This document shows, piece by piece, positions 7,222 to 56,191 of a stretch of 64,000 nt of DNA. Source of the DNA: Candidatus Hadarchaeota archaeon. Lineage in GTDB: Archaea; Hadarchaeota; Hadarchaeia; Hadarchaeales; JAWBSP01. The first letter of the stretch is position 1; each line of letters begins with the position of its first letter. The stretch is from assembly GCA_964474885.1 (NCBI GenBank), contig CAYYWO010000004.1, positions 12,923-76,922 on the forward strand, given 5' to 3'. The position numbers and the translations under genes were made by a program. The notes beneath the pieces were generated by a model. It was given only the letters and a program-made list of their open reading frames with translations, was not told the DNA's origin and did not search any database.

Positions 7222-8829
7222 TCACGCTTCCCCGAGCGTGAGCTCGAATGCGGCGACTGGATGCCTCAATTCAAAATTTTGGAGGACCAGGGGGTGCACC
7301 TCCCCATAAAGCCCGATCGTCCTTCCCTCGGATTGAACCTCCACCACCCTGCCCTCCATGAAGCTGGGGTGGCTGCCCTCCCTGTGCACCGCGTGAAAGC
7401 GTAGCTCTCTCAAAACCGCCTCCACCACTGCTTTGATCTGCGTGAAGTTCCCGCCCACCCACGCGGCGGCAAGCTTCCTGTACGTGGCTACAGTCTCTCC
7501 CTTAAGCTGGGGGATCACCACATCACCCACCTCGAAGAACTTTTGAGGCAACTCATAGATCCTGTTTCTCGCACAGGTCTGCATGAGGGAAGGTAGAAGC
7601 CAAGTTCTCAGGATGGTGAATTCCTCCGACACCGGGTTGGCCACCTCGACCGCTTCCCCCCGGACGAGCATTTGCTCGAAGTTCACCCTTGGATTCGTCA
7701 GGATGTAGTTCATCACCTGGGTAAAACCCAGGCCCAGCATAACCAGCCTAGCCTTCCTCGAGACTTCTTCCAAGGGGTGCGTGCCCCCGACGGTGGCCAC
7801 CCTCGGTTGGACGGGTTCAATCCTGTCGTAGCCGTAGCCTATCGCCAGCTCCTCTATGAGGTCCACCTCGTGCATCAGATCCACACGGTAGGGAGGAGCC
7901 AGCACTCGATCCCCGCGCGGCTCGAACCTCATTCGCCTTAGTATCTTCCGGGCTTCCTTAGGGGTCAGTCTGATACCCAAGTACTTGCAGGCCCTCCTCA
8001 GATCGAACTTCATCGGAGAGGGTGTCAAGCTCAAGCGCCTCACCCTGGGGACGATCTTGACCTCTTCTAAGGTGAAGCCCCGCTCCGCCAAAGCACACAT
8101 AAGTATCTTTAGGGTGTTCACGACCACCCTCTCATCCGTACCGGTTACGTCGATGAAGAGGTTCCTCGTTCGGACAGTGACCTTGGTGTCCTCGCTGTTG
8201 ACGATGGGGGGCATAGAAAGCACCGTGCCCCTCGAATCCACGAGGATGGGATACCTGTCCTTCCCCTCGAGCAGGTGCGCGAACTCTGCTCCCTTTGGAT
8301 GCTTCCTGAGGATCTCATCCAGGGACATCCTCTCTGACATGCCAAGGGGAACAAAGCTCACCTGATCGGGCTGGACTGCTCTGTAATAAATGGGGGGCGT
8401 GATAGTATCGAGGTCATAAACCCCTATCGATGCTTTCCTTCTCCGCCTGCAGTAGGTCTCGTGTAGCTTTTCTTGCGCCTGCATGAGGGAGATCAGACTC
8501 TCCTCGGTGAGGTTGACCCTCCTCACCACGCAGGCTCGGATGAAGGGCCTGACCTGCCTGACCGACTCCTCCACCTGCAGCTCGATCCTAGGCTTCCTCA
8601 CCCTGTACCTTCGCAGGCCTGTTTGGACACCCAGCATGCCCTTCACGAGCCTAGCCACTCCCTCGATGGTGAGCAGGTCTGGACGGTTGTGGGGCACCTC
8701 CACCCTCAGCTCCTGCCCGACGATTTCCGCCTCCATGCCTGCTTGGTCAAGTACCCGGATGACGCTTGTGACATCTCGCCTCCCGACCAGCTGCCCGAAG
8801 TCGCTCAAGTTTAGATTGACCACCGGCAT
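7222..8829 (-). CDS. pheT: phenylalanine--tRNA ligase beta subunit
   Basis: 535 aa, archaeal PheT size; N-terminal B3/B4-like region; directly downstream of and overlapping pheS by 1 nt. Confidence 0.88.
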   Translation of the reverse strand: MPVVNLNLSDFGQLVGRRDVTSVIRVLDQAGMEAEIVGQELRVEVPHNRPDLLTIEGVARLVKGMLGVQTGLRRYRVRKPRIELQVEESVRQVRPFIRACVVRRVNLTEESLISLMQAQEKLHETYCRRRRKASIGVYDLDTITPPIYYRAVQPDQVSFVPLGMSERMSLDEILRKHPKGAEFAHLLEGKDRYPILVDSRGTVLSMPPIVNSEDTKVTVRTRNLFIDVTGTDERVVVNTLKILMCALAERGFTLEEVKIVPRVRRLSLTPSPMKFDLRRACKYLGIRLTPKEARKILRRMRFEPRGDRVLAPPYRVDLMHEVDLIEELAIGYGYDRIEPVQPRVATVGGTHPLEEVSRKARLVMLGLGFTQVMNYILTNPRVNFEQMLVRGEAVEVANPVSEEFTILRTWLLPSLMQTCARNRIYELPQKFFEVGDVVIPQLKGETVATYRKLAAAWVGGNFTQIKAVVEAVLRELRFHAVHREGSHPSFMEGRVVEVQSEGRTIGLYGEVHPLVLQNFELRHPVAAFELTLGEA

Positions 8830-10292
8830 TATCCGCTCCTCAGCCAGTTTAGATCATTGGAGAAAAGCATGCGGATGTCGTCCACGCCCAGCCTTAGCAT
8901 TATGAGGCGGGAAAGACCTATCCCCCAAGCTAGGACGGGCTGCCTTATCCCTAGGGGGAGCAACAGTTCGGGTCTGAACATCCCCGCCCCCAGGACCTCA
9001 ACCCACTCTCCCCTTGCTTCATGATAAACGAGCGCCTCGGCTGAGGGCTCAGTGTAGGGGAAGTACGAGGGGCGGAACCTTACCCGCTCGAAACCCAGCT
9101 TCCGGAGAATCTCCTTCAGGTACCCGAACATGTCCCTAAGAGTCAGACCCTCTTGCATGACTATCCCCTCGCACTGGTAAAACTCAGCTAGGTGCTTGTA
9201 GTCTATTTTGTCGTGTCTGAAGACTCTGCCTATGCTGAAGATTTTGACGGGGGGTGCAGGCCTGCCCGAGAGATACCTAACCGTCGCGGCGGTCGTCTGG
9301 GAGCACAGGAGAAGCCTCCTGCTGATGTTGAAATCGAAACGATACCCCCAGCCTCTCGAGCCCCCCACTCCCCGCTCGTGAGCGACCGCCACCTTTCTCG
9401 CGAGCTCCTCAGGGATCTCTCCCAAGGATGGTTTCTTCAGGGTCAGACTGTCGTGGATCTCCCTAGCGGGGTGATCCTGGGCTTGGAAGAGGGCGTCGAA
9501 GTTCCAGAACTCTGTTTCCACGATGCGGCTCGGGATCTCTTGAAAACCCAAACTAATCAGTACTTCCCTCACCTCGTCTATAACCCTTTGCTGCGGATGC
9601 AGTCTAGCGGGATAAACTGGGGAAACAGGAGCGAGCACGTTGTAGCGCTTGAACTTCACTTCCCTCCACTTTCCGCTGACGAGCAATTCTGTCGTCAGCT
9701 CGGAGACCTCCTCCTCGGGTGGCGGGACCTCTGTTTTCTTCCCCAGCTCGGTGAGTGAGACGTGACGCGAGACTCTTTTTTCCAAGTGCACCAGGCCACG
9801 TCTGCACAAAACCTGTAACTCGGGATCCACTCGCTCAATCACCTGCCCCTTGCTCGCCCTCCTGAGCCAGGCCTCCTCGGGCCACGTCTCGTCCCTGAGC
9901 CTCAGGCCCTCCTCAGTTGGTCTCAAAAGGTTGTTCTCTATTTTGACGAGCTTCTTCCGCCTCAGCCAGCCTAAGGCTATCCGCATTTCCTGATCACTCA
10001 GCCGTGCCTTCCTCTTCGCTTCATCTAGGGGCATCTCCTTCTCGAGCACCCTGAGCAAGCACTTCTCGGGCAAGCCTTGCTGGAGGTATTTCAGACCTTC
10101 CTCCGACAGAGATAGGTGATACTTGGTCTCCTCGGAGACCCTCACAAGGCCTGCCTCCTTCAAGGCCAGAATCCCCCTCATGACGGCTGCCTGGTCCATT
10201 TGGGCGAGCTGCGCCAGCTGCTCAACCGTCCCCTCCCCGCACTCCTTCAGCTTGAGCAGGACCACCCGGGACTCCCTGTTCAGGTCAGACAT
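8829..10292 (-). CDS. pheS: phenylalanine--tRNA ligase alpha subunit
   Basis: 487 aa; class II core motifs (FRHDKIDYKHLAEFYQCEG, GAGMFRPE); N-terminal winged-helix repeats. Confidence 0.9.
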   Translation of the reverse strand: MSDLNRESRVVLLKLKECGEGTVEQLAQLAQMDQAAVMRGILALKEAGLVRVSEETKYHLSLSEEGLKYLQQGLPEKCLLRVLEKEMPLDEAKRKARLSDQEMRIALGWLRRKKLVKIENNLLRPTEEGLRLRDETWPEEAWLRRASKGQVIERVDPELQVLCRRGLVHLEKRVSRHVSLTELGKKTEVPPPEEEVSELTTELLVSGKWREVKFKRYNVLAPVSPVYPARLHPQQRVIDEVREVLISLGFQEIPSRIVETEFWNFDALFQAQDHPAREIHDSLTLKKPSLGEIPEELARKVAVAHERGVGGSRGWGYRFDFNISRRLLLCSQTTAATVRYLSGRPAPPVKIFSIGRVFRHDKIDYKHLAEFYQCEGIVMQEGLTLRDMFGYLKEILRKLGFERVRFRPSYFPYTEPSAEALVYHEARGEWVEVLGAGMFRPELLLPLGIRQPVLAWGIGLSRLIMLRLGVDDIRMLFSNDLNWLRSG

Positions 10293-12407: not shown

Positions 12408-12977
12408 CTAGCGTAGCTTTGCGCCTTTGCGAGCCAGCGTGTGTTTCAACACTTCCCGAACGGTTCCAGCGGGGGCGAGTTTTTTAGCCAGAGCAAAGGC
12501 GAAGGCCATGGCGGTCCCCGGACCTTGACTGGTTATTATGTTCTTGTCCACCACGACTATTGCCTTCTTTGGCTTCCCCCCACCCCTCCGCAGCTCCTTC
12601 TCCAGCCCCGGGTAGATGGTGCAGCTCTTTCCCCTGAGCACACCTGCTTCCGACAGAGCGGCCGGACCCCCGCAGATCGCCCCGATCAGCTTTCCTTGCT
12701 GATTCGCTTCCTGCAGGAGCTTCAGGACTCTCTGATCCTTCTTCAGGTTCTCCCAGCCTGGGGAGCCGCCGGGGCATATGAACGCGTCGAATTCCTCCAC
12801 CCGGACCTCCTCTACTGGGACATCTGCCTCCACCTTGACACCGTGGGAGCTCTCGATCGGTCCGCGCTGCAGTCCGGCAGTTGTCACCTCAACCCCGCAC
12901 CTCCTCAAGATATCAATGACCGTCATCGTCTCTATCTCCTCGAAGCCTGGTGCCAGAAAGACCACCGCGCGAGCCAT
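12408..12977 (-). CDS. DJ-1/PfpI family protein
   Basis: 189 aa; nucleophile-elbow AICGGP; family-typical N-terminus VVFLAPGFEEIE. Confidence 0.85.
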   Translation of the reverse strand: MARAVVFLAPGFEEIETMTVIDILRRCGVEVTTAGLQRGPIESSHGVKVEADVPVEEVRVEEFDAFICPGGSPGWENLKKDQRVLKLLQEANQQGKLIGAICGGPAALSEAGVLRGKSCTIYPGLEKELRRGGGKPKKAIVVVDKNIITSQGPGTAMAFAFALAKKLAPAGTVREVLKHTLARKGAKLR

Positions 12978-14948: not shown

Positions 14949-17900
14949 TTGTCGGTGAGAGGGGGGATAGGTAGGTGGGCAACGATATTGATAGACCTAC
15001 TTATTGTTCTATCCTATATGCCCCCCGGAGTCCTCGCGGTTCTGAAGACCCCTCAACTCCTTTCACCTGAAAATGACTCTTGGGTGAACGACAACACGCC
15101 CCTGTTCGACTGGACTGATGTCACAGATGCTACAAGCTACCAGATACTCGTTGACAATGACCCTGACTTCACGTCCCCTGAGATCAATGATTTTCCGACC
15201 ACAAGCGAGTACGAACCCACGGTTGAGCTGGAGGAGGGCATCTTCTACTACTGGGAGGTCAGGGCTAGGAATGAGGACACGGGGGACTCCTCCAACTGGT
15301 CTGAGGTTTGGTGCTTCAGGGTGGACATAACTCCTCCCCTTGCCCCTTCCCTCATCTCCCCCGACAACTCCGTTACGCTCTGGGTGGATCAGCCCACTTT
15401 CAGCTGGTCGGAGGTCTCCGACCTGAGCGGGATAACTTACAGGCTTGAGATAGATAACGACCCCAACTTCTCCTCCCCCGCGTACTCCATCCTCCTCACA
15501 GTCACCACCCACCAGCTGGAGAACAAACTGGTCGAGAACTTCTCCCCCTACTACTGGAGGGTGACGGCTGTGGACGGTGCGGGAAACGAAAACTCCTCGG
15601 TCGTGTACAAGTTCAACCTGAAAGTTCCCCCTGCCTCCTCGGTGGATCCGATCTCCCCGTACTGGGAGAACTCCGCCTTCACCGTCACGATGAGCGCCTC
15701 CGACAACGACGGGACGGTGGAAAATGTGGAGCTCTGGTACCGGTACTCGAGCGATAACACGAATTGGGGGGACTGGATCCTTTACGACAACGACTCCACT
15801 CCCCCCCACTCCCTAGTTTTTTCACCGCCCTCCGGTGACGGCTACTACGAGTTCTACTCGAGGGCATGGGACGACAGGGGGAACTACGAGAATGCTCCAG
15901 CCCAAGCGGATGCTAGGTGCGGCTACGATACGGTGGCCCCTCCCGCTCCCGAAAACCTCCTACCGGAAAACAACGCCGACTTGGTGACCCCCACCCCGAC
16001 CCTGGAGTGGTCCAGGGTGAGCGATATGAGCGGTGTCAAGTATGAGGTCTTGGTAGACAACGACAACCTCTTCGAACCCCCTTGGTCCTACCAAGCGGAA
16101 AACCTGGCAGAGAACACGGTTACAACCTCCCCCCTCGCCCCGGGACTTTACTACTGGAAGGTTCGGGCCAGGGACGGAGCGGGCAACTACGGTGCCTGGT
16201 CAGAGGTATACCAGTTCTATGTCAGAGCCTGGAGGCTTTTAGAGGATTTCAATGCTTGCATCCAAACCCTTTCAGGCTGGAGGCCCACCGAGGCACTTTC
16301 CTGCGGTTTATCCTCTCCCGCGAGCTGGATCAGGATCGAGGCACTAGCGGGGGGCATCGCACCCACCTGGTGGAAGCTGGAAGAAAGCTGCTGCACCACC
16401 GAAACACTCGCTGGGTGGAAGTTCGTCGGATCCCTGCAGGCTGGCGTGCGGGCTCTCCTGCCTAGTTGGGTCCGCATCGAGCAGTGGAGCAACACAGTCA
16501 AATCTGTTGGACTCTGGAATCTCCTACACAGCATTAGCTCATCTGTCCACAGCATTCCGGTCGCCTGGAGGTATCTCGAGGGTTGCAGCTCGGTAACCAG
16601 AACCCTGCCCCAGCTTTGGTATTTCTTGGGCTGTTACCAAGGGGGCTGTCGGGCTCCAGCAGGGTGGTTCGGGGTAGAGGAGTGGCTGTGCCACTTGAAC
16701 TTCGCGGCACATTGGCTCACCCTCACCCAGCTGTCTGCAAGCCCGTCGGCTCCGGCCAGCTGGCGCCCCACCGACACCCTCACCTCCTCCACCCAGACCC
16801 GTGGTTACTGGCGGTTGCAAGGGGTATGGAGCGCCGGTCTCCCGGCGCCCGTTCCATCTCCCCGGCTCACCTCACCGGAGAATTCTGCCAACCTGAGCAC
16901 GAATTCACCGCTCCTGTGCTGGGAGAACCTGCTCCCCGCCGACAATTATCACCTCCAAGTCGACAACGAGCCCAACTTTGACCAGCCCGAGGTGGATGTC
17001 TGGCTCACCGAGAACTCCCACCAGCCAACCCTCCCGGACGGGGTCTACTACTGGAGGGTGATGCAGACGAGGAACTCCGCTGCGTCGGAATGGTCCTCAG
17101 TCTTTAGCTTCAGACTCGATACCGTGCCCCCGCCCAAGCCCACCCTCCTCTTCCCAGCGAACCAAAACATAAACGACAACACGCCCCTCTTCCGCTGGAC
17201 CTCAGTCCCGGAGAATTCCCTGCCCCTTAGCTACTGGATAGAGATCGACAACGAGCCGGCCTTCAATCCGCCAAAGCTCCTGTCAACTGGCTGGCTCTGG
17301 GACAACTACTACCAGCTCACCACCGAGCTGTCAGACGGCGAGTACTACTGGAGGGTAAAAGTGAGGGACAATGCGGGGAACTTGGGGGACTGGTCGAGCG
17401 AGAACTTCAGAGTGGACACCGTGAGGCCTTCCGCACCCGCCCCCATTTCACCCACTTCAAACGCCTGGGCATCCGTAACTCCCACCTTCACTTGGCAGAG
17501 GGTCAGTGAGAACTCGTTCCCGGTCAAATACCGCGTGTTCGTGTGCGAGGACTCCGGCTTCGATACAAGCGTCTACAAGGTTTACGTCTCGCCCTGGCTG
17601 ACGGAAAACGAGTGGACCTCCCCCGTGCTGGTGGAGGGGCTCGGGGTGGAAGGGAAGCTCTTCTACTGGAGGGTATGCGCCCTAGACAATGCGGGTAACC
17701 TCAGCGAGAATTCTCCCATTCAGGTCTTCCGGACCGACAACGTTCCACCCTCAGTTCCAGACATCCTAGCTCCCGAGAACTGCGCTTACGTCTCGGAGGT
17801 CTTCACTCTGGCATACACGGCATCGGACGGGGGCTCCGGTGTAGCTAGCTACTGGGTCCAGGTCATGGACGAGAACGGTGAAATAGTTTACGAGAACCAA

Positions 17901-20900
17901 GAGGCTGAGAACAGAGTAGTCTTGCGACTCAGTGAGGGCACCTACCAGTGGAGGGTCAGGGCGAGGGACGCGATCGGGAACCTGAGTGATTGGTCGGCCC
18001 TCTACACCTTCACGGTCAGCATCTGGAGATTCATCGAGAGCTGGAGCCTAGCGCTGGGTACCCCGAGGAGATGGCACCCCATCGAGAGTTTCTCCGCCTC
18101 CTCAGAAGGCCGGGTCTCCTGGAGGGAACTAGACACTTGGGTAGCATCCGCCCTCTGCCCGGCCGGATGGGTGCTTTCAGAGGGAGTTTCCTCGGCTGTG
18201 GGCACACGCGCCAGGTACCTCCAGCTGGCCTCATTGACCGCCACCGTTGCGCCGAAGGCGGGATGGGCCTCGGTTGCCACATTCTCGAGCTCTCTTTCAT
18301 CCCCCGGCTCCTGGGAGCTCCTCGATAGCAGGAGCGCGGAGTCCTCTGCACCGAGCTCTTGGGTGCGGGTGGAGCAAATGATTTCCTCCCTCGCGTACCC
18401 AACCGCCTGGCGGAAGCTGGAGACCTACTCCTGCATCCTGACAAACATGCCTGGCTGGAGATCAGTGGAGGACATCACGGTCCTCCTCTGGAGCCCCTCC
18501 TTCTTCCGCTTCTTGGACTCGTACTGCGGTAAGCTTGCAGGCCCCGTCCGCTGGTGGGTGCTCTCCGCTCAAACATCCGGAGCACGGACGGTTGTCGGAT
18601 GGGCACCCGTTGAGCTCGTGAGTGCGACGTGCAACACCAAGAGGGCATGGACGCTCGTCGGTAGCTATGCTGCACGGACCTCTGCTCCGGCTGTATGGAA
18701 AGGGCTTGCCAGCCTGAGCGCCGCAATCAGCGCCCCGATTCCCACCCCAACGCTGGTCTCCCCCGCGGACGGGACAAACATAAATCCCAATCTTTCCACC
18801 CTGACGCTCCGGTGGGAAAACTCCCTGTCGGCAGACAACTTCGATCTCCAGATCGACAACAATGCCGATTTCTCCTCTCCTGAGGTCTCCGTGACCGTCA
18901 CCGGCAACAAGTACTCGCCCGCGGATCTCCCGGATAATCTGTACTGGTGGAGGGTCAGGCAGAGGAGGACGGGGAGTGTCTCAGGCTGGTCCGGAGCCTG
19001 GAAATTCAGGGTAGACACCCTTGAGCCCTCGCCTCCCGAACCCCTCAGCCCGATCGAGGGCGAGAACCTGAATGATCCCATCCCCGTGCTTGAGTGGTCA
19101 GAACCGCCCGAAAACTCCCTCCCGCTCACCTACAAGGTGCAGGTCGCCACTTCCAGGTTCTTCGAGTCCGGCACCATCCTCAGGGAAACTTGGGTCTCGG
19201 AGCCGAGGTGGGAGGTCTCCCCCGCCCTGCCGGACAACGTCTACTACTGGAGGGTGCTCGCGAGGGACAACGCGGGGAACAACAGCCTGTATTCCGAAGT
19301 CAGGAGCTTCAGGGTGGACACCCTGAGCCCGCCCGCTCCAACACTGGTAGAACCGGAGAACGACAGCTGGGCACCCGGAGACTTCCGCTTCTCTTGGACC
19401 TCCATCCCCGAAAACTCCCTGCCCGTGGTCTACAACCTCGTCATCGCCTACGACTCGGACTTCAGCGAAATGGTAGAGAACGTGTTCCTCCTAGAAAACA
19501 CTTACTCAACCTCCCTAGCAGAGGGTTCCTACTGGTGGAAAGTCAGGGCGAGGGACAATGCTGGTAATTGGAGTGAGTGGTCGGATGCCTGGACCTTCAC
19601 CCTGGACAACACCCCACCCAGCCAGGTCGTCCTGACGAGACCCGAGAACTCCTCCTTCGTCCAGAGCGGACCTGTGACCTTCGGCTGGCAATCCGCCTCG
19701 GATGAGGGTTCGGGTGTGGGGAGGTACTGGATTCAGATCTGGCGCAACGGTTCCTTAGTGTACGAGAACTGCTCGGTGCCCGATAATTCGCTCACGGTGG
19801 AGGTGCCGACCGGGCTGTACTGGTGGAGGGTGAGGGCGGTGGATGTCGCCGGAAATGCGGGCGGGTGGTCGGAGCCATTTGTCTTCACTTCCTCCGACTG
19901 GCACCAGCTCGAATCTTGGCAGCTGCCGCTCGTTGCCCCGGCTAGCTGGAAGGGGGACGAGAGCTGGACCGTCTCCGCTCTCGGAGCTGCCCTCTGGAGA
20001 AAGCTCGAAATCTCGTCGGCTCGCACTAGCTCGCCCGGTCGCTGGGAGCTATCTGACAGTTGGGTCACGTCCATGTGCTCTCCATCGGCTTGGTACAGTC
20101 TGGATGGTAGGAGCATCTCCATCGTCTCCCCCGTTGCCTGGAAGAAGCTCGAAAACTGGATTGGCAGCTGCGCGCTCCCCGCCCTCTGGCACCTAACAGA
20201 AATCCTTCCGGCTTCTCTGAAGACAGTTGCCCACTGGCTGGAACTGGAAGCTCAAACTGGAACCTGCCACGGCTTGCTCGGGAAGTGGAGGCTGATTGAT
20301 CAACTGCAGGGCACGGTGCTCGCACCAGCGTTTTGGCTGCCTCTCATGTCCATTCAGAGCCAGGCAGGAGCCGTGTCCAACTGGCAAAAAGTGAGCACGT
20401 GGCCGGCAACGATCGGTGGCCCCATCCACCCACCGGTCCTGATCGCCCCTGAAAACACCAACACCAATGACAACACGCCCACCTTCCAATGGGACAACCT
20501 CCAGCCTGTCGACAACTTCGAGTTCATGCTCGACAACGATGCGGACTTCAGCTCGCCTGAGGTCCACCTGACAACCTCAGACAAGTCCTACACTTCGGGT
20601 GAGCTGCCCGACGGGGTTTACTGGTGGAGAGTCAGATGCTGGAGGACTGGTACCGCCGGTGGCTGGTCGGAGGTCAGATACTTGAGGGTGGACACCGTCA
20701 GTCCCTCCTCCCCCGACCTGCTGAGCCCGTCCGATGGTGAGGACGTCAGCGATTCAACTCCCGTCCTCAGCTGGAGTTCCCCACCTGAGAACTCCCTGCC
20801 CCTCACCTACAACCTCAAGATCTCAACCTCACCTTACTTCGAGCCCGAGAACATCGTGATTGATGTCTGGGTGGAGGAGAACTCCTACGAGGTATCTGGT

Positions 20901-23465
20901 CTCGACGAAAATGGGGTTTACTACTGGAAGGTATGTGCCAGGGACAATGCGGGAAACACCGGGCCCTTCACACCCTATGCCTGGAGATTCCACATAGATA
21001 CTACGCCGCCCGCCTCACCCTCCCTGCTATCACCGGAAAACCGGGGGTGGGCAAAACCCGAGGCTGAGCTATCCTGGCAGGAGGTACCCGAGAACTCCCC
21101 ACCCGTGCTCTACCTGGTCCAGATCTCCGACTTCCCGGACTTCCTGAACACGGTTAGGGAGGTAAAGACTTATGATAATTCGTGGACGGTCTCCCCACCG
21201 CTGCCCGTCAGCTCCTACTACTGGAGAGTAAAGGCGAGGGACAACGCGGGGAACTGGAGCGAGTGGTCGGAGGTTTGGTGGTTCAAAGTAGATAACGAAG
21301 CACCCTCCAAGCCCAGTTTGATCACACCAGAGAACGGGAGTCATGTCCAGGCGAACGCCCCTTTCACCCTCACCTTCACGGCCTCCGACGGAACGGGTTC
21401 GGGCGTGGCCTACTATCAAGTGCAGATCGACAATGACCCAGCCTTCCCCGCCCCCCTCATCGATGTCACAGTGTCCGATAACAGCTGTCAGGTGTCAGGG
21501 CTGGCTTGGGGGACTTACTACTGGCGCGTGAGAGCCATAGACAACGTGAGTAACGTGGGGCCTTGGTCGGATCCATACATCCTTTATTCGAGTGACTGGA
21601 AACTCTGTGATCGGTTCTCAGTGACTGCCCGAGGAAGGGTGTCTTGGGTGCTCAACGAGCGACTGGCTGGTAGGGTGGGTTCCCCCGCCAACTGGTTCTT
21701 CTGCGAATCGAGATCTGGAGGCATAGAGAACGTCGCTAGAGGATGGTTCTTCTTGGAAAGCTGGGCGAATGAGAACGCAGTTGGGGTGCACTACTGGGCA
21801 TTGGTCGAGAGATGGACTAATGCCCTTCGGGCCTATTCCACGTGGAAACACATCGATGTCCGCTCCTCGCGGCTGTTATCACCTCCAACCTACTGGCTCT
21901 TCCTTGAGCGGGTCACGGGAGAACTCGAGGCGACGTTGGGATGGTGGCTGCTTGAGGATTATGCAGGTGCCCTCACCCTTCCGGCGGGCTGGGAGTACTT
22001 GGAGAACTGGAATTCATCCCTTACAGGAGTGCACTACTGGGTACTGCTGGACGAGTGGCGGAGTCTCGCCTATCACCCCCTCTGGAGAACCCTCGACGTT
22101 ACTCCTTGCAGGCTTAACACACGTGCCGAGCACTACCGGCTGGAGGACAGAAGCGGGTACCTGGGTGTGCCTTCCTCCGCGTGGAGGCACGTAGAAACTG
22201 AGGCAGGCGGGTGTAGGTGGAAACCAGCTCACTGGACCCAAGTCGAGAGAATCCGATCCAGGTCGGTACCTGCCTTCTGGAGGCTACTGGAACGCTTCAG
22301 ATGCGGATTCGGCCCGAAAACAGGCTGGCTGTTCATTGAGAAGAAAATCCTCGGGATACGCACTCCCGCCACGAGATTCCACACTCTAGAGAGTCTCCGA
22401 TCCTCTCTATTCGCCCCACATATCTGGTCCTTGGTCGACAGAGGCAGAGGAGAGGTCTACACGTTCATCCACTGGAAGGCTTACATCAGAAGTGCGTACA
22501 TTCCTAGGAAGGGCTGGTTCGTACTCGAACTCAAAAGTTGCTCTGTCTTCGCTCCGAGATATCTAGAGGAGAGAAAAGAGCGGGAGGTATCGGTAACCCA
22601 AGTGGGGGTGCAGCAGTTCAGTCATTTGAGTGCCAGTGCAGAGAGAGCCTGGTGCAGGGTGCATCCGCCTCACTCGTCTATCTCGGTTGGGGAGTCTAAG
22701 TACCTACCCCCTTGGCTCCCGTCGCTGCCGGGTGAGCTCTGCAGGTACATTGATGTCAAGCTGAAGAACTGCCAGCTACTGAAACTGAGGATCAGGGTAA
22801 GCAAGGCCTGGCTCAAAAAGATGGACAGGAACACCTTGAGGGTTTGGGGGTACAAGGGTGAGTGGGTCTCCCTGCCCTTCGAACTCGCAGCGGAGGACGA
22901 GCTTTACCTGTACCTGGAGTTCGAGTCCCAAGGTTTCAGCTGCTTCGCGGTTACTGCGAGAAGAAAACCCTTCTTCCCGTGGTGGGCTGTTCTGTGGGTA
23001 TGGCTGGGGATCGTGGGAACCCTGGGATATCTGATGCTCCAGCCCTTCATCGGGGAGATACGTCTGCGCAGGCTACAGCAAAAATACGAGGAGTCCCTGA
23101 AAGGTGCTACCTATCGGAAGATAGCGAGCAGGCTCAGATCGATCGGCAGGAAGCTCAGCAAGGAGGATCGAATAGCTCTAAGAGAAATCGCTGAGGAGCT
23201 CAGGCTCCTCCCGCCTCCCACACTGGTCCCCGTGGAAGAAAAGCTCACCAAACCGGAGCTCATTGCCGTTGAGACTCTAGAGAAGTTCATCAGGGAGAGG
23301 AGAAAAAGAATACCCCTCCGCCGCGAGAAGCTGGAGGAACTGAAGAAACTTCAGAGAGAGATGCTGAGACGGCCAAAAGAAAGGCGCCGATCCAAGCGGA
23401 AACGGACCACTAGGAAATATGCCAGGAGCGAGCAGAAGAAGCCCGCTAAGAGATCTAAGAAATAA
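14949..23465 (+). CDS. giant (2838 aa) surface protein: signal/anchor, 4 x [about 4 FN3-like domains + Trp-periodic repeat block], pre-anchor module, TM helix, long basic cytoplasmic tail
   Basis: Uninterrupted 8517-nt ORF. TTG start preceded by TATTTAAAAA about 30 nt upstream. About 16 repeats of the FN3-like consensus tPtF.W...Y.l.vDnd.dFssP....t.y....L.dG.YYWRVRARDNAGN.S.WS. Four W-periodic blocks and a C-terminal TM helix FFPWWAVLWVWLGIVGTLGYLML. Confidence 0.85.
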   Translation: MSVRGGIGRWATILIDLLIVLSYMPPGVLAVLKTPQLLSPENDSWVNDNTPLFDWTDVTDATSYQILVDNDPDFTSPEINDFPTTSEYEPTVELEEGIFYYWEVRARNEDTGDSSNWSEVWCFRVDITPPLAPSLISPDNSVTLWVDQPTFSWSEVSDLSGITYRLEIDNDPNFSSPAYSILLTVTTHQLENKLVENFSPYYWRVTAVDGAGNENSSVVYKFNLKVPPASSVDPISPYWENSAFTVTMSASDNDGTVENVELWYRYSSDNTNWGDWILYDNDSTPPHSLVFSPPSGDGYYEFYSRAWDDRGNYENAPAQADARCGYDTVAPPAPENLLPENNADLVTPTPTLEWSRVSDMSGVKYEVLVDNDNLFEPPWSYQAENLAENTVTTSPLAPGLYYWKVRARDGAGNYGAWSEVYQFYVRAWRLLEDFNACIQTLSGWRPTEALSCGLSSPASWIRIEALAGGIAPTWWKLEESCCTTETLAGWKFVGSLQAGVRALLPSWVRIEQWSNTVKSVGLWNLLHSISSSVHSIPVAWRYLEGCSSVTRTLPQLWYFLGCYQGGCRAPAGWFGVEEWLCHLNFAAHWLTLTQLSASPSAPASWRPTDTLTSSTQTRGYWRLQGVWSAGLPAPVPSPRLTSPENSANLSTNSPLLCWENLLPADNYHLQVDNEPNFDQPEVDVWLTENSHQPTLPDGVYYWRVMQTRNSAASEWSSVFSFRLDTVPPPKPTLLFPANQNINDNTPLFRWTSVPENSLPLSYWIEIDNEPAFNPPKLLSTGWLWDNYYQLTTELSDGEYYWRVKVRDNAGNLGDWSSENFRVDTVRPSAPAPISPTSNAWASVTPTFTWQRVSENSFPVKYRVFVCEDSGFDTSVYKVYVSPWLTENEWTSPVLVEGLGVEGKLFYWRVCALDNAGNLSENSPIQVFRTDNVPPSVPDILAPENCAYVSEVFTLAYTASDGGSGVASYWVQVMDENGEIVYENQEAENRVVLRLSEGTYQWRVRARDAIGNLSDWSALYTFTVSIWRFIESWSLALGTPRRWHPIESFSASSEGRVSWRELDTWVASALCPAGWVLSEGVSSAVGTRARYLQLASLTATVAPKAGWASVATFSSSLSSPGSWELLDSRSAESSAPSSWVRVEQMISSLAYPTAWRKLETYSCILTNMPGWRSVEDITVLLWSPSFFRFLDSYCGKLAGPVRWWVLSAQTSGARTVVGWAPVELVSATCNTKRAWTLVGSYAARTSAPAVWKGLASLSAAISAPIPTPTLVSPADGTNINPNLSTLTLRWENSLSADNFDLQIDNNADFSSPEVSVTVTGNKYSPADLPDNLYWWRVRQRRTGSVSGWSGAWKFRVDTLEPSPPEPLSPIEGENLNDPIPVLEWSEPPENSLPLTYKVQVATSRFFESGTILRETWVSEPRWEVSPALPDNVYYWRVLARDNAGNNSLYSEVRSFRVDTLSPPAPTLVEPENDSWAPGDFRFSWTSIPENSLPVVYNLVIAYDSDFSEMVENVFLLENTYSTSLAEGSYWWKVRARDNAGNWSEWSDAWTFTLDNTPPSQVVLTRPENSSFVQSGPVTFGWQSASDEGSGVGRYWIQIWRNGSLVYENCSVPDNSLTVEVPTGLYWWRVRAVDVAGNAGGWSEPFVFTSSDWHQLESWQLPLVAPASWKGDESWTVSALGAALWRKLEISSARTSSPGRWELSDSWVTSMCSPSAWYSLDGRSISIVSPVAWKKLENWIGSCALPALWHLTEILPASLKTVAHWLELEAQTGTCHGLLGKWRLIDQLQGTVLAPAFWLPLMSIQSQAGAVSNWQKVSTWPATIGGPIHPPVLIAPENTNTNDNTPTFQWDNLQPVDNFEFMLDNDADFSSPEVHLTTSDKSYTSGELPDGVYWWRVRCWRTGTAGGWSEVRYLRVDTVSPSSPDLLSPSDGEDVSDSTPVLSWSSPPENSLPLTYNLKISTSPYFEPENIVIDVWVEENSYEVSGLDENGVYYWKVCARDNAGNTGPFTPYAWRFHIDTTPPASPSLLSPENRGWAKPEAELSWQEVPENSPPVLYLVQISDFPDFLNTVREVKTYDNSWTVSPPLPVSSYYWRVKARDNAGNWSEWSEVWWFKVDNEAPSKPSLITPENGSHVQANAPFTLTFTASDGTGSGVAYYQVQIDNDPAFPAPLIDVTVSDNSCQVSGLAWGTYYWRVRAIDNVSNVGPWSDPYILYSSDWKLCDRFSVTARGRVSWVLNERLAGRVGSPANWFFCESRSGGIENVARGWFFLESWANENAVGVHYWALVERWTNALRAYSTWKHIDVRSSRLLSPPTYWLFLERVTGELEATLGWWLLEDYAGALTLPAGWEYLENWNSSLTGVHYWVLLDEWRSLAYHPLWRTLDVTPCRLNTRAEHYRLEDRSGYLGVPSSAWRHVETEAGGCRWKPAHWTQVERIRSRSVPAFWRLLERFRCGFGPKTGWLFIEKKILGIRTPATRFHTLESLRSSLFAPHIWSLVDRGRGEVYTFIHWKAYIRSAYIPRKGWFVLELKSCSVFAPRYLEERKEREVSVTQVGVQQFSHLSASAERAWCRVHPPHSSISVGESKYLPPWLPSLPGELCRYIDVKLKNCQLLKLRIRVSKAWLKKMDRNTLRVWGYKGEWVSLPFELAAEDELYLYLEFESQGFSCFAVTARRKPFFPWWAVLWVWLGIVGTLGYLMLQPFIGEIRLRRLQQKYEESLKGATYRKIASRLRSIGRKLSKEDRIALREIAEELRLLPPPTLVPVEEKLTKPELIAVETLEKFIRERRKRIPLRREKLEELKKLQREMLRRPKERRRSKRKRTTRKYARSEQKKPAKRSKK
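16224..16862 (+). repeat. Trp-periodic repeat block 1 inside giant gene (approximate)
   Basis: About 10 units of about 21 aa, each with W-[RK]-x-[LV]-[ED] (WRLLED, WIRIEAL, WWKLEE, WVRIEQW). Confidence 0.6.
18016..18745 (+). repeat. Trp-periodic repeat block 2 (approximate)
   Basis: SIWRFIESW, SWRELDTW, SWELLDSR, SWVRVEQM, AWRKLETY, GWRSVEDI at about 21-aa spacing. Confidence 0.6.
19891..20420 (+). repeat. Trp-periodic repeat block 3 (approximate)
   Basis: DWHQLESW, SWKGDESW, LWRKLEIS, RWELSDSW, AWKKLENW, KWRLIDQL etc. Confidence 0.6.
21589..22560 (+). repeat. Trp-periodic repeat block 4 (longest; approximate)
   Basis: DWKLCDRF, NWFFCESR, GWFFLESW, HYWALVERW, TYWLFLERV, GWWLLEDY, HYWVLLDEW, FWRLLERF, GWLFIEKK, GWFVLELK. 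Confidence 0.6.
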
Positions 23466-25504: not shown

Positions 25505-25579
25505 TGCCGGGGGCGGGATTTGAACCCGCGGCCTCGGGATTATGAGTCCCGCGCTATAACCAGGCTTAGCTACCCCGGC
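25505..25579 (-). tRNA. tRNA with CAU anticodon (Met or Ile2); G1-C72, so not an initiator
   Basis: Minus-strand read GCCGGGGTAGCTAAGCCTGGTTATAGCGCGGGACTCATAATCCCGAGGCCGCGGGTTCAAATCCCGCCCCCGGCA. 7-bp acceptor stem, T-loop TTCAAAT, anticodon loop CTCATAA. CCA not encoded. Confidence 0.85.
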
Positions 25580-56113: not shown

Positions 56114-56191
56114 GCGGCAGTAGTCTAGCCTGGTCTAGGACACAGGCTTGCCGAGCCTGTAGCGCGGGTTCAAATCCCGCCTGCCGCACCA
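56114..56191 (+). tRNA. tRNA-Gly (GCC), CCA encoded
   Basis: GCGGCAGTAGTCTAGCCTGGTCTAGGACACAGGCTTGCCGAGCCTGTAGCGCGGGTTCAAATCCCGCCTGCCGCACCA. Anticodon loop TTGCCGA, T-loop TTCAAAT. Confidence 0.85.

Follow-up and report, generated by a model that had tools for sequence, protein, structure and literature searches.

Coils of 16 residues are unusual among solenoid proteins, and the repeat of the ice-nucleation proteins (INPs) is the only described 16-residue-per-coil solenoid family known to us. INPs such as InaZ and PbINP carry tandem 16-residue repeats, with each repeat predicted to make up a single coil of a flat β-solenoid with an aromatic ladder and arrays of threonine (PMC9418140). Region IV of the giant Marinomonas adhesin MpIBP (MpAFP; PDB 3p4g), a bacterial ice-binding protein secreted through a type I secretion system (T1SS), is a Ca2+-dependent β-helix with a 19-residue coil and an xGTGND Ca2+-binding turn. 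The autotransporter passengers of Gram-negative bacteria (Ag43, TibA, pertactin, Vag8 and Hap) are built from three-sided coils of ~19–25 residues and are accompanied by a C-terminal β-barrel translocator, and the PbH1/Beta_helix models (PF13229 and TIGR03804) describe three-sided coils of ~22 residues. In archaea, the PGF-pre-PGF domain represents a class of anchoring module that is found in many euryarchaeal surface glycoproteins. The Hadarchaeota occur widely in hot springs and the deep subsurface and have been enriched in culture only recently; to our knowledge, their cell envelope is essentially undescribed. In this study, we analysed a stretch of 64,000 nucleotides (hereafter the window; positions 12,923–76,922 of contig CAYYWO010000004.1, assembly GCA_964474885.1) from a Candidatus Hadarchaeota archaeon, in which a single gene encodes a giant surface protein with four tryptophan-periodic blocks (W blocks). 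The W blocks consist of a 16-residue repeat, which defines a previously unannotated family restricted almost entirely to Hadarchaeota and is predicted to form a β-solenoid.

The giant gene is one continuous open reading frame (ORF), which, when read mechanically, spans 14949–23465 on the forward strand and opens at TTG 14949. Its translation is identical to protein record P0001 (NCBI contig of 84,228 bp). Four full-length orthologues, P0002–P0005, share 40–47% identity with it over 98–99% of the query; the named one among them, P0002, comes from a Candidatus Hadarchaeales metagenome-assembled genome (MAG). The protein comprises a signal peptide, four successive sets of four immunoglobulin (Ig)/FN3-like domains and one W block, a PGF-pre-PGF domain, a transmembrane (TM) helix and a basic tail (Table 1). 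The signal peptide is putative, having been read from hydropathy. Each W block starts immediately after the last Ig strand (...YQFYVRA-WRLLED and ...YTFTVSI-WRFIES) without a linker and closes with a short Pro-rich connector, P-x-P-x-L-x-SPEN. A preliminary description of this DNA had located Trp-periodic blocks at 16224–16862, 18016–18745, 19891–20420 and 21589–22560, in strict alternation with FN3-like arrays. All four are present near these places, in frame 1 of the ORF and with boundaries that differ by a few codons, and four Ig domains do precede each of them.

Within the W blocks, successive Trp residues are separated by 16 residues or by 6 + 10 residues. Blocks 1–4 contain 8, 10, 10 and 9 Trp pairs at lag 16, compared with means of 1.0–1.6 after shuffling (1.2 for block 1), and for each block the observed count was reached in none of 5000 shuffles. 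The autocorrelation of Trp and that of all residues both have their maxima at lags 16, 32 and 48, while only 0–1 Trp pairs per block occur at lag 21. The period of ~21–22 residues originally assigned to the blocks is therefore incorrect, and the accompanying argument that such a period is typical of one β-helix rung falls with it, the rung being 16 residues long. The units of the four blocks are mostly of 16 residues, with a few of 14–17. Tandem Repeats Finder detected neither a 48-nt repeat nor any other DNA-level tandem repeat in the W blocks, which rules out recent amplification at the DNA level and argues that the 16-residue periodicity is kept by selection at the protein level.

The family consensus of the unit is A-P-A-x-W-x-L-[ILV]-E-S-W-T-G-T-V-x. 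Residue frequencies were computed over ~2000 unique units, in which Trp5 serves as the anchor that defines the unit and is 100% by construction. Position 9 is Glu or Asp in 93% of the units, position 8 Ile, Val or Leu in 84%, position 11 Trp in 79%, position 15 Val, Ile or Leu in 73%, position 13 Gly in 61%, position 10 Ser or Thr in 58%, position 12 Thr or Ser in 57% and position 14 Thr in 46%; Ala at position 3 (42%), Pro at position 2 (39%), Ala at position 1 (37%) and Leu at position 7 (28%) are less frequent, and positions 4, 6 and 16 accept any residue. The distance from Trp5 to Trp11 is +6 in 1963 cases and differs in 28. Units of 16 residues predominate (994), followed by those of 17 (199), 18 (56) and 15 (44), and in the commonest of the listed 17- and 18-residue units the extra residues lie between T-G-T-V and the next Trp. 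Six proteins (P0014, P0136, P0012, P0013, P0262 and P0025) are composed chiefly of units of 17 or 18 residues, which are lengthened at the A-P-A corner. Entropy is highest at positions 4, 6, 7 and 16, and hydrophobic or small residues occupy the alternating positions 11, 13, 15, 1, 3 and 5 as well as 8, a pattern of conservation that fits a solenoid.

In the window protein, Trp5 is again present in all units, with Leu, Val or Ile at position 8 in 94%, Glu or Asp at position 9 in 81%, Pro at position 2 in 48% and Arg or Lys at position 6 in 36%; position 11 is Trp, Leu, Phe or Tyr, position 13 Ala, Gly, Ser or Cys, and position 15 Leu, Ile, Cys or Ala. The hexamers quoted in the preliminary description (WRLLED, WIRIEA, WWKLEE, SWRELD, SWELLD, AWRKLE, GWRSVE, LWRKLE, RWELSD, GWFFLE, FWRLLE, GWLFIE and GWFVLE) were all recovered at the positions given. 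The motif W-[RK]-x-[LV]-[ED] is too narrow, since the full unit reads x-P-a-x-W-x-x-[LVI]-[ED]-x-[W/aromatic]-x-[small]-x-[LIV]-x, and the basic residue after Trp is a property of the window protein and not of the family. In P0115, the unit [ST]-P-A-x-W-x-Q-L-D-S-W-T-G-T-x-x is present in dozens of copies, and a profile made from these repeats alone matches the window protein with E = 1.6e-63 over 883 residues, corresponding to ~55 units. On this sequence evidence, the units of the window protein are degenerate copies of the family unit.

With block 2 as the only query, a word-seeded homology search returned no relatives, whereas the whole protein as query did recover them, including full-length orthologues at 33–47% identity; lag-16 Trp periodicity is present in ~25 of the best 120 matches and is often far more regular than in the window protein. 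The search for further proteins with the same Trp periodicity, which the preliminary description had proposed, was extended with HMMER by scanning a four-unit profile against 1.84 billion protein cluster representatives. This retrieved 196 proteins at E ≤ 1e-3, a number that falls to 128 when the threshold is E ≤ 1e-10 and to 69 when it is E ≤ 1e-30. Nearly all members with a named organism derive from Hadesarchaea or Hadarchaeales; among those looked up the sole exception is P0025, in which a 17-residue spacing predominates and which comes from a Thorarchaeota MAG, where either lateral transfer or a mistake in binning could explain its presence. We also scanned 185,579 species, each represented by a single genome, for a degenerate DNA pattern that codes for two canonical units in succession, and obtained 63 loci. 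Archaeal MAGs account for 61 of these, all but a few named Hadesarchaea, Hadarchaeota or Hadarchaeum and the rest 'Methanobacteriota archaeon', 'archaeon' or 'uncultured archaeon'; most of the archaeal loci contain several pattern matches, and up to seven loci occur per genome. The remaining two loci are single matches in bacteria, about what is expected by chance. When the window was compared with the 63 loci by blastn, a single weak match appeared, which shows that its own genome is not represented in this set. Inside the window, the repeat profile matches the giant ORF alone.

No Pfam or NCBIfam model matches any W block, even at E ≤ 10, a comparison of the repeat profile with PDB sequences gave only noise (TcdA at E = 0.5–1.7), and no description of the W repeat was found in the literature searched. 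The earlier view that the repeat belongs to no named family is thus upheld, as is the setting aside of WD40, Kelch, NHL, PQQ, YVTN and LVIVD, none of which gives a Pfam match. The W repeat is a previously unannotated family restricted almost entirely to Hadarchaeota. The canonical repeats of P0030 and P0124 do pass the gathering scores of Pfam DUF3499 (PF12005) and of the galactokinase galactose-binding signature (PF10509), and PF12005 is the precomputed Pfam label of P0030; these scores add up from numerous short coincidental matches that fall repeatedly on a handful of positions in the profiles, and both labels look like false annotations caused by the repeat. In the relatives, the repeat is joined to PGF_pre_PGF (74.6 bits in P0030), F5/8 type C galactose-binding, PbH1/NosD β-helix, choice-of-anchor T and Ig/FN3 modules, and on account of these varied extracellular partners it behaves as a mobile extracellular module.

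The blocks differ in how they vary among orthologues. Blocks 2 and 3 range from 188 to 347 residues among P0001–P0005, which indicates gain and loss of units, whereas block 4 has a fixed length and aligns nearly without gaps with P0002–P0005 at 31–36% identity. Several idiosyncratic units of block 4 (IENVAxGWF, GVHYW, which occurs twice, and APHIW) are common to the orthologues. The H-Y-W-x-L-[LV]-[ED]-x-W elaboration that had been pointed out in this block is indeed found there twice, as GVHYWALVERW and GVHYWVLLDEW, and since GVHYW is kept across the orthologues it is a conserved position-specific feature rather than noise. These observations suggest that block 4 is a specialized membrane-proximal solenoid that stands beside length-tunable distal ones.

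The structures of two sets of repeats were predicted with AlphaFold2. For block 2 of the window protein, modelled with a 29-row alignment of repeat segments, the prediction is all-β and repeats every 16 residues (pLDDT 70.1, pTM 0.53), and for twelve canonical units of P0030 it is likewise all-β (pLDDT 79.5, pTM 0.73). In both models the predicted fold is a right-handed parallel β-solenoid with one coil per repeat. The preliminary description had suggested both a possible β-solenoid and a single-block prediction; the solenoid survives as a prediction from models of moderate confidence, although the rung length once used to support it does not. In the P0030 model, DSSP assigns runs of 13 strand residues separated by three non-strand residues exactly at A-P-A, which taken alone look like hairpins and could denote an antiparallel β-meander, where every unit of 16 residues would supply one long strand, and A-P-A a tight turn, of a sheet with one or two layers. 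The mutual information between a unit and the next unit agrees with such an arrangement in that its strongest pair, 11-9' (z = 11.8), and the pair 9-11' (z = 8.1) lie on the i + j = 20 antidiagonal expected for a meander. The correlation matrix is, however, dominated by the clustering of degenerate units, and the pairs 9-3', 9-8' and 15-3' score equally high. A meander would, moreover, leave a sheet face of W, L, W and V exposed, and the same P0030 model, the better of the two, superposes on parallel β-helices over 191 of 192 residues at 2.1 Å, which indicates that the long runs assigned by DSSP represent ladders carried on through β-arcs. We therefore regard the meander as very unlikely.

Taken as a whole, we consider it fairly probable that the giant protein is a membrane-anchored, adhesin-like fibre with four 16-residue-per-coil β-solenoid rods between its Ig arrays. 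Each W block would fold as a narrow right-handed parallel β-solenoid, with one coil for every 16-residue repeat. Trp5, the aliphatic residue at position 8, the aromatic or hydrophobic residue at position 11 and the aliphatic residue at position 15 would form internal ladders, for which the small residues at positions 13, 1 and 3 would leave room, and the x-A-P-A-x segment would be one corner that tolerates insertions. The near-invariant Glu or Asp at position 9 would line one edge as an acidic ladder, implying a functional edge, and might be neutralized by Arg or Lys at position 6 in the window protein, or possibly by cations in more acidic relatives. With 59 coils of 0.48 nm, the four rods would total ~28 nm and, spliced without linkers among four arrays of four Ig/FN3-like domains, could belong to a fibre that extends roughly 90 nm from the Hadarchaeota cell. 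The putative N-terminal signal peptide and, at the opposite end, the basic tail preceded by the pre-PGF domain and the TM helix point to such a membrane-anchored fibre. A location at the surface is likewise suggested by the N-terminal hydrophobic segment, the TIGR04213 pre-PGF domain and the TM helix, together with the extracellular modules of the relatives. The solenoid blocks may act as rigid spacer and contact modules, and the most plausible use of their flat faces would be in attachment or self-association, by analogy with the β-helices of the Ag43/TibA type that they resemble. The likeness to the adhesin, autotransporter and MpIBP solenoids and the modules that accompany the repeat in paralogues suggest this role by analogy.

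Several points weigh against this explanation. The models are of moderate confidence, one of five predictions for block 2 gave a collapsed structure (pLDDT 23.8), the AlphaFold2 input alignments consisted of register-shifted paralogous repeat segments, and AlphaFold2 tends to give solenoids for repetitive input. A Foldseek search of the PDB with the block 2 model gave no match better than E = 0.5, the weak matches being nearly all parallel β-solenoids. The units of the window protein are far more degenerate than the consensus, the second Trp being present in 23% and Gly13 in 19% of them. The inward or outward assignment of the Trp residues was made from conservation alone, a ladder of stacked Glu residues is awkward in energetic terms without some compensation, and the neighbouring genes, which are housekeeping genes, give no hint as to the function of the giant protein. 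Some of these points would also be accounted for if the blocks were degenerate linkers or spacers that are not stably folded alone and the solenoid were an AlphaFold artefact of repetitiveness, as the degenerate units, with ~20–30% identity to the orthologous blocks, the pLDDT of only 70 for block 2 and the lack of any significant Foldseek match might suggest. Such a linker would hardly be expected to show position-specific conservation (Trp5 in 100%, the acidic residue 9 in 81–93% and the aliphatic residue 8 in 84–94% of units), a spacing that is fixed over thousands of units in ~200 protein clusters despite fully diverged DNA, or a block 4 that is kept unit for unit in the orthologues, and the hydrophobic, aromatic composition of the blocks is unlike that of linkers. 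We accordingly give the linker very little credence and retain the solenoid as the predicted fold.

The INP repeat (Pfam Ice_nucleation, PF00818) has its tandem 16-residue period in common with the W repeat, but the two are unrelated in sequence, the INP consensus being AGYGSTQTAGEESSLT (AGYGSTxTAxxxSxLT) and that of the W repeat APAxWxL[ILV]ESWTGTVx. Alignment of the repeat profile with four INP consensus units by hhalign gave a probability of 0.02%, and no PF00818 match appeared even at E ≤ 10; membership in the INP repeat family was therefore rejected. The host proteins also differ, INPs being bacterial outer-membrane proteins with one long array, whereas the W-repeat host is archaeal and TM-anchored and carries four shorter arrays between Ig domains. 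A more far-reaching idea, which we regard as improbable, is that the W repeat represents a second, independently evolved class of 16-residue-per-coil solenoid, distinguished by double Trp ladders, an acidic edge and an apparent confinement to one archaeal phylum. Rather than a passive spacer, it would then be a working surface by which Hadarchaeota cells of the hot deep subsurface adhere to one another, to syntrophic partners or to substrates of a mineral or hydrophobic nature, with the variable blocks tuning reach or avidity.

The fold of MpAFP region IV is similar to that of the W-repeat model, yet the identity in the structural alignment is only 5–8%, and the W repeat, which resides in an archaeal protein, lacks both the 19-residue coil and the Ca2+-binding turn. 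That this closest structural match is a Ca2+-dependent β-helix leads to the alternative that the solenoid is mainly a ligand-binding surface and not a rod, with three kinds of candidate ligand. Cations (Ca2+ or Mg2+) might bind to the Glu/Asp ladder in the manner of MpAFP and the RTX β-rolls, the surface might recognize the lattice of a mineral or crystal, or its Thr/Ser or aromatic face might bind a glycan. The acidic residue is nearly invariant in each coil, some paralogues have two acidic residues per coil (for example ...IETWTGTVE), canonical relatives have T-G-T in each coil, which we would liken to a TxT array, and one relative has a galactose-binding F5/8 type C domain. The known Gly/Asp-rich Ca2+-binding turns of RTX proteins and MpAFP (GGxGxD and xGTGND) are, however, absent from the unit profile, with no Pfam or NCBIfam match in the blocks; Thr12 and Thr14 are not conserved in the window protein, and Arg or Lys at position 6 can balance the acidic ladder. 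This alternative is judged to be unlikely.

The window protein has no translocator and no pertactin- or AIDA-type domain recognizable by Pfam or NCBIfam, and no sequence similarity to autotransporters was found. The PbH1/Beta_helix models do not match it, and in the relative P0124 they match residues 1290–1481, apart from the best W-repeat stretch at residues 823–885. The choline-binding and clostridial CROP repeats (CW_binding_1, an aromatic hairpin of ~20 residues) gave no Pfam match, with TcdA at the level of noise. As in archaeal PGF-pre-PGF/PGF-CTERM proteins, a C-terminal TIGR04213 domain is followed by a hydrophobic helix; the score narrowly exceeds the curated cut-off, and the match covers the last 67 profile positions only (87–153 of 153). 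That family differs in having a short sorting-signal tail, and its definition does not include the W repeat. The W repeat is accordingly filed as a new unannotated family of a known architectural kind, a solenoid module in a giant surface protein, which has the predicted fold class but neither the motif nor the period in common with RTX/MpAFP, PbH1 and autotransporter proteins.

Table 1. Features of the giant surface protein and their positions in the window
Feature	Position	Strand	Residues	Basis or remark
Giant surface-protein gene	14955–23465	+	2836 aa	From GTG start of record P0001
N-terminal hydrophobic segment, probably signal peptide	14979–15047	+	11–33	Kyte-Doolittle 19-residue window >1.6, Arg before it
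Ig/FN3-like array 1, four domains	15051–16217	+		YYW[RK]V...D.AGN motif at residues 100, 201 and 401
W-repeat block 1, ~13 units of 16 aa	16218–16856	+	424–636	Unit parsing; lag-16 Trp pairs; P0115 repeat hidden Markov model (HMM)
Ig/FN3-like array 2, four domains	16866–18011	+		Best Big_13 stretch at residues 738–824; motif at residues 700, 799 and 905
W-repeat block 2, 15 units	18012–18743	+	1022–1265	Exact 16-aa register throughout; block used for modelling
Ig/FN3-like array 3, four domains	18756–19886	+		Motif at residues 1332, 1432, 1528 and 1624; Pfam Y_Y_Y/Big_3_3 traces at residues 1521–1561
W-repeat block 3, 11 units	19887–20429	+	1647–1827	Unit parsing; lag-16 Trp pairs; repeat HMM
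Ig/FN3-like array 4, four domains	20445–21584	+		fn3 at residues 1932–2006; Ig_Rha78A_N at residues 2073–2113; Big_7 at residues 2123–2164
W-repeat block 4, ~20 units of 14–17 aa, membrane-proximal	21585–22562	+	2213–2538	Unit parsing; lag-16 Trp pairs
PGF-pre-PGF domain	22767–22958	+	2607–2670	NCBIfam TIGR04213, 29.2 bits, cut-off 28
Predicted TM helix	22983–23042	+	2679–2698	Hydrophobic window WAVLWVWLGIVGTLGYLML, score 1.78
K/R/E-rich C-terminal tail, 140 aa, presumably cytoplasmic	23043–23462	+	2699–2838	Read from translation

Over the whole giant protein, Pfam detects Ig_Rha78A_N (131 bits in ten stretches), Big_13 and fn3. Array 2 also contains an NCBIfam OmpL47-type domain (residues 953–1017), and the YYW[RK]V...D.AGN motif recurs in array 4 at residues 1891, 1991, 2090 and 2190. 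In composition, the W blocks are richer than the Ig arrays in Cys (2.1% versus 0.6%) and His (2.0% versus 0.4%), as well as in Ala, Leu and Arg, and are strongly depleted in Asp (1.9% versus 7.0%) and Asn (1.7% versus 7.6%). The Cys residues of the W blocks are often found at unit positions 13 and 15, which are predicted to face inwards. The C-terminal tail of 140 residues matches no family; it is strongly basic, resembles a coiled coil and stands where a PGF-CTERM sorting signal would have a short tail; contacts with the cytoskeleton or with nucleic acid are conceivable roles.

Other-frame ORFs of 110–150 residues are stacked over the W blocks on both strands (16082–16981, 17990–18444, 19733–20567 and 21769–22194) and are regarded as a by-product of a GC-rich, stop-poor codon composition. 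The possibility that the W blocks are themselves a frame artefact was ruled out, as the reading frame runs without a break from the blocks into the adjoining Ig domains and is conserved in the orthologues. The neighbouring genes encode the α and β subunits of phenylalanyl-tRNA synthetase (PheRS), an AIRS-like protein, DJ-1/PfpI, MarC, a protein with the metallo-β-lactamase fold, PAP2, an FAD oxidoreductase and RpiA. The PheRS β and α genes are adjacent (7222–10292 on the reverse strand), with coordinates that share base 8829, and the window also carries tRNA-Met (CAT; 25505–25579, reverse strand) and tRNA-Gly (GCC; 56114–56191, forward strand). The PheRS and tRNA content is consistent with a chromosomal rather than a mobile-element setting of the giant gene. 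Positions 1–450 of the window (reverse strand) hold the 5' part of an archaeal small-subunit (SSU) rRNA gene (Rfam RF01959, 367 bits, model positions 1–405), which is cut by the start of the window. The named best relatives of the giant protein and of PheRS α all come from Candidatus Hadarchaeales, Hadarchaeota or Hadarchaeum MAGs.

The W repeat marks a group of giant surface proteins, with several members in each genome, that are now annotated as 'hypothetical'. A family model would name them and would remove the spurious DUF3499 and galactokinase-signature matches on canonical repeats, and the SSU rRNA fragment at the start of the window could place the organism precisely. Protein science would gain from the repeat a Trp-rich solenoid of 16-residue coils that is both natural and highly regular and stems from a lineage with thermophilic members; it could be useful as a rigid scaffold and as a counterpart against which to compare the ice-nucleation solenoid, whose structure has yet to be solved. 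The near-exclusive presence of the repeat in one phylum makes it a candidate lineage marker for Hadarchaeota.

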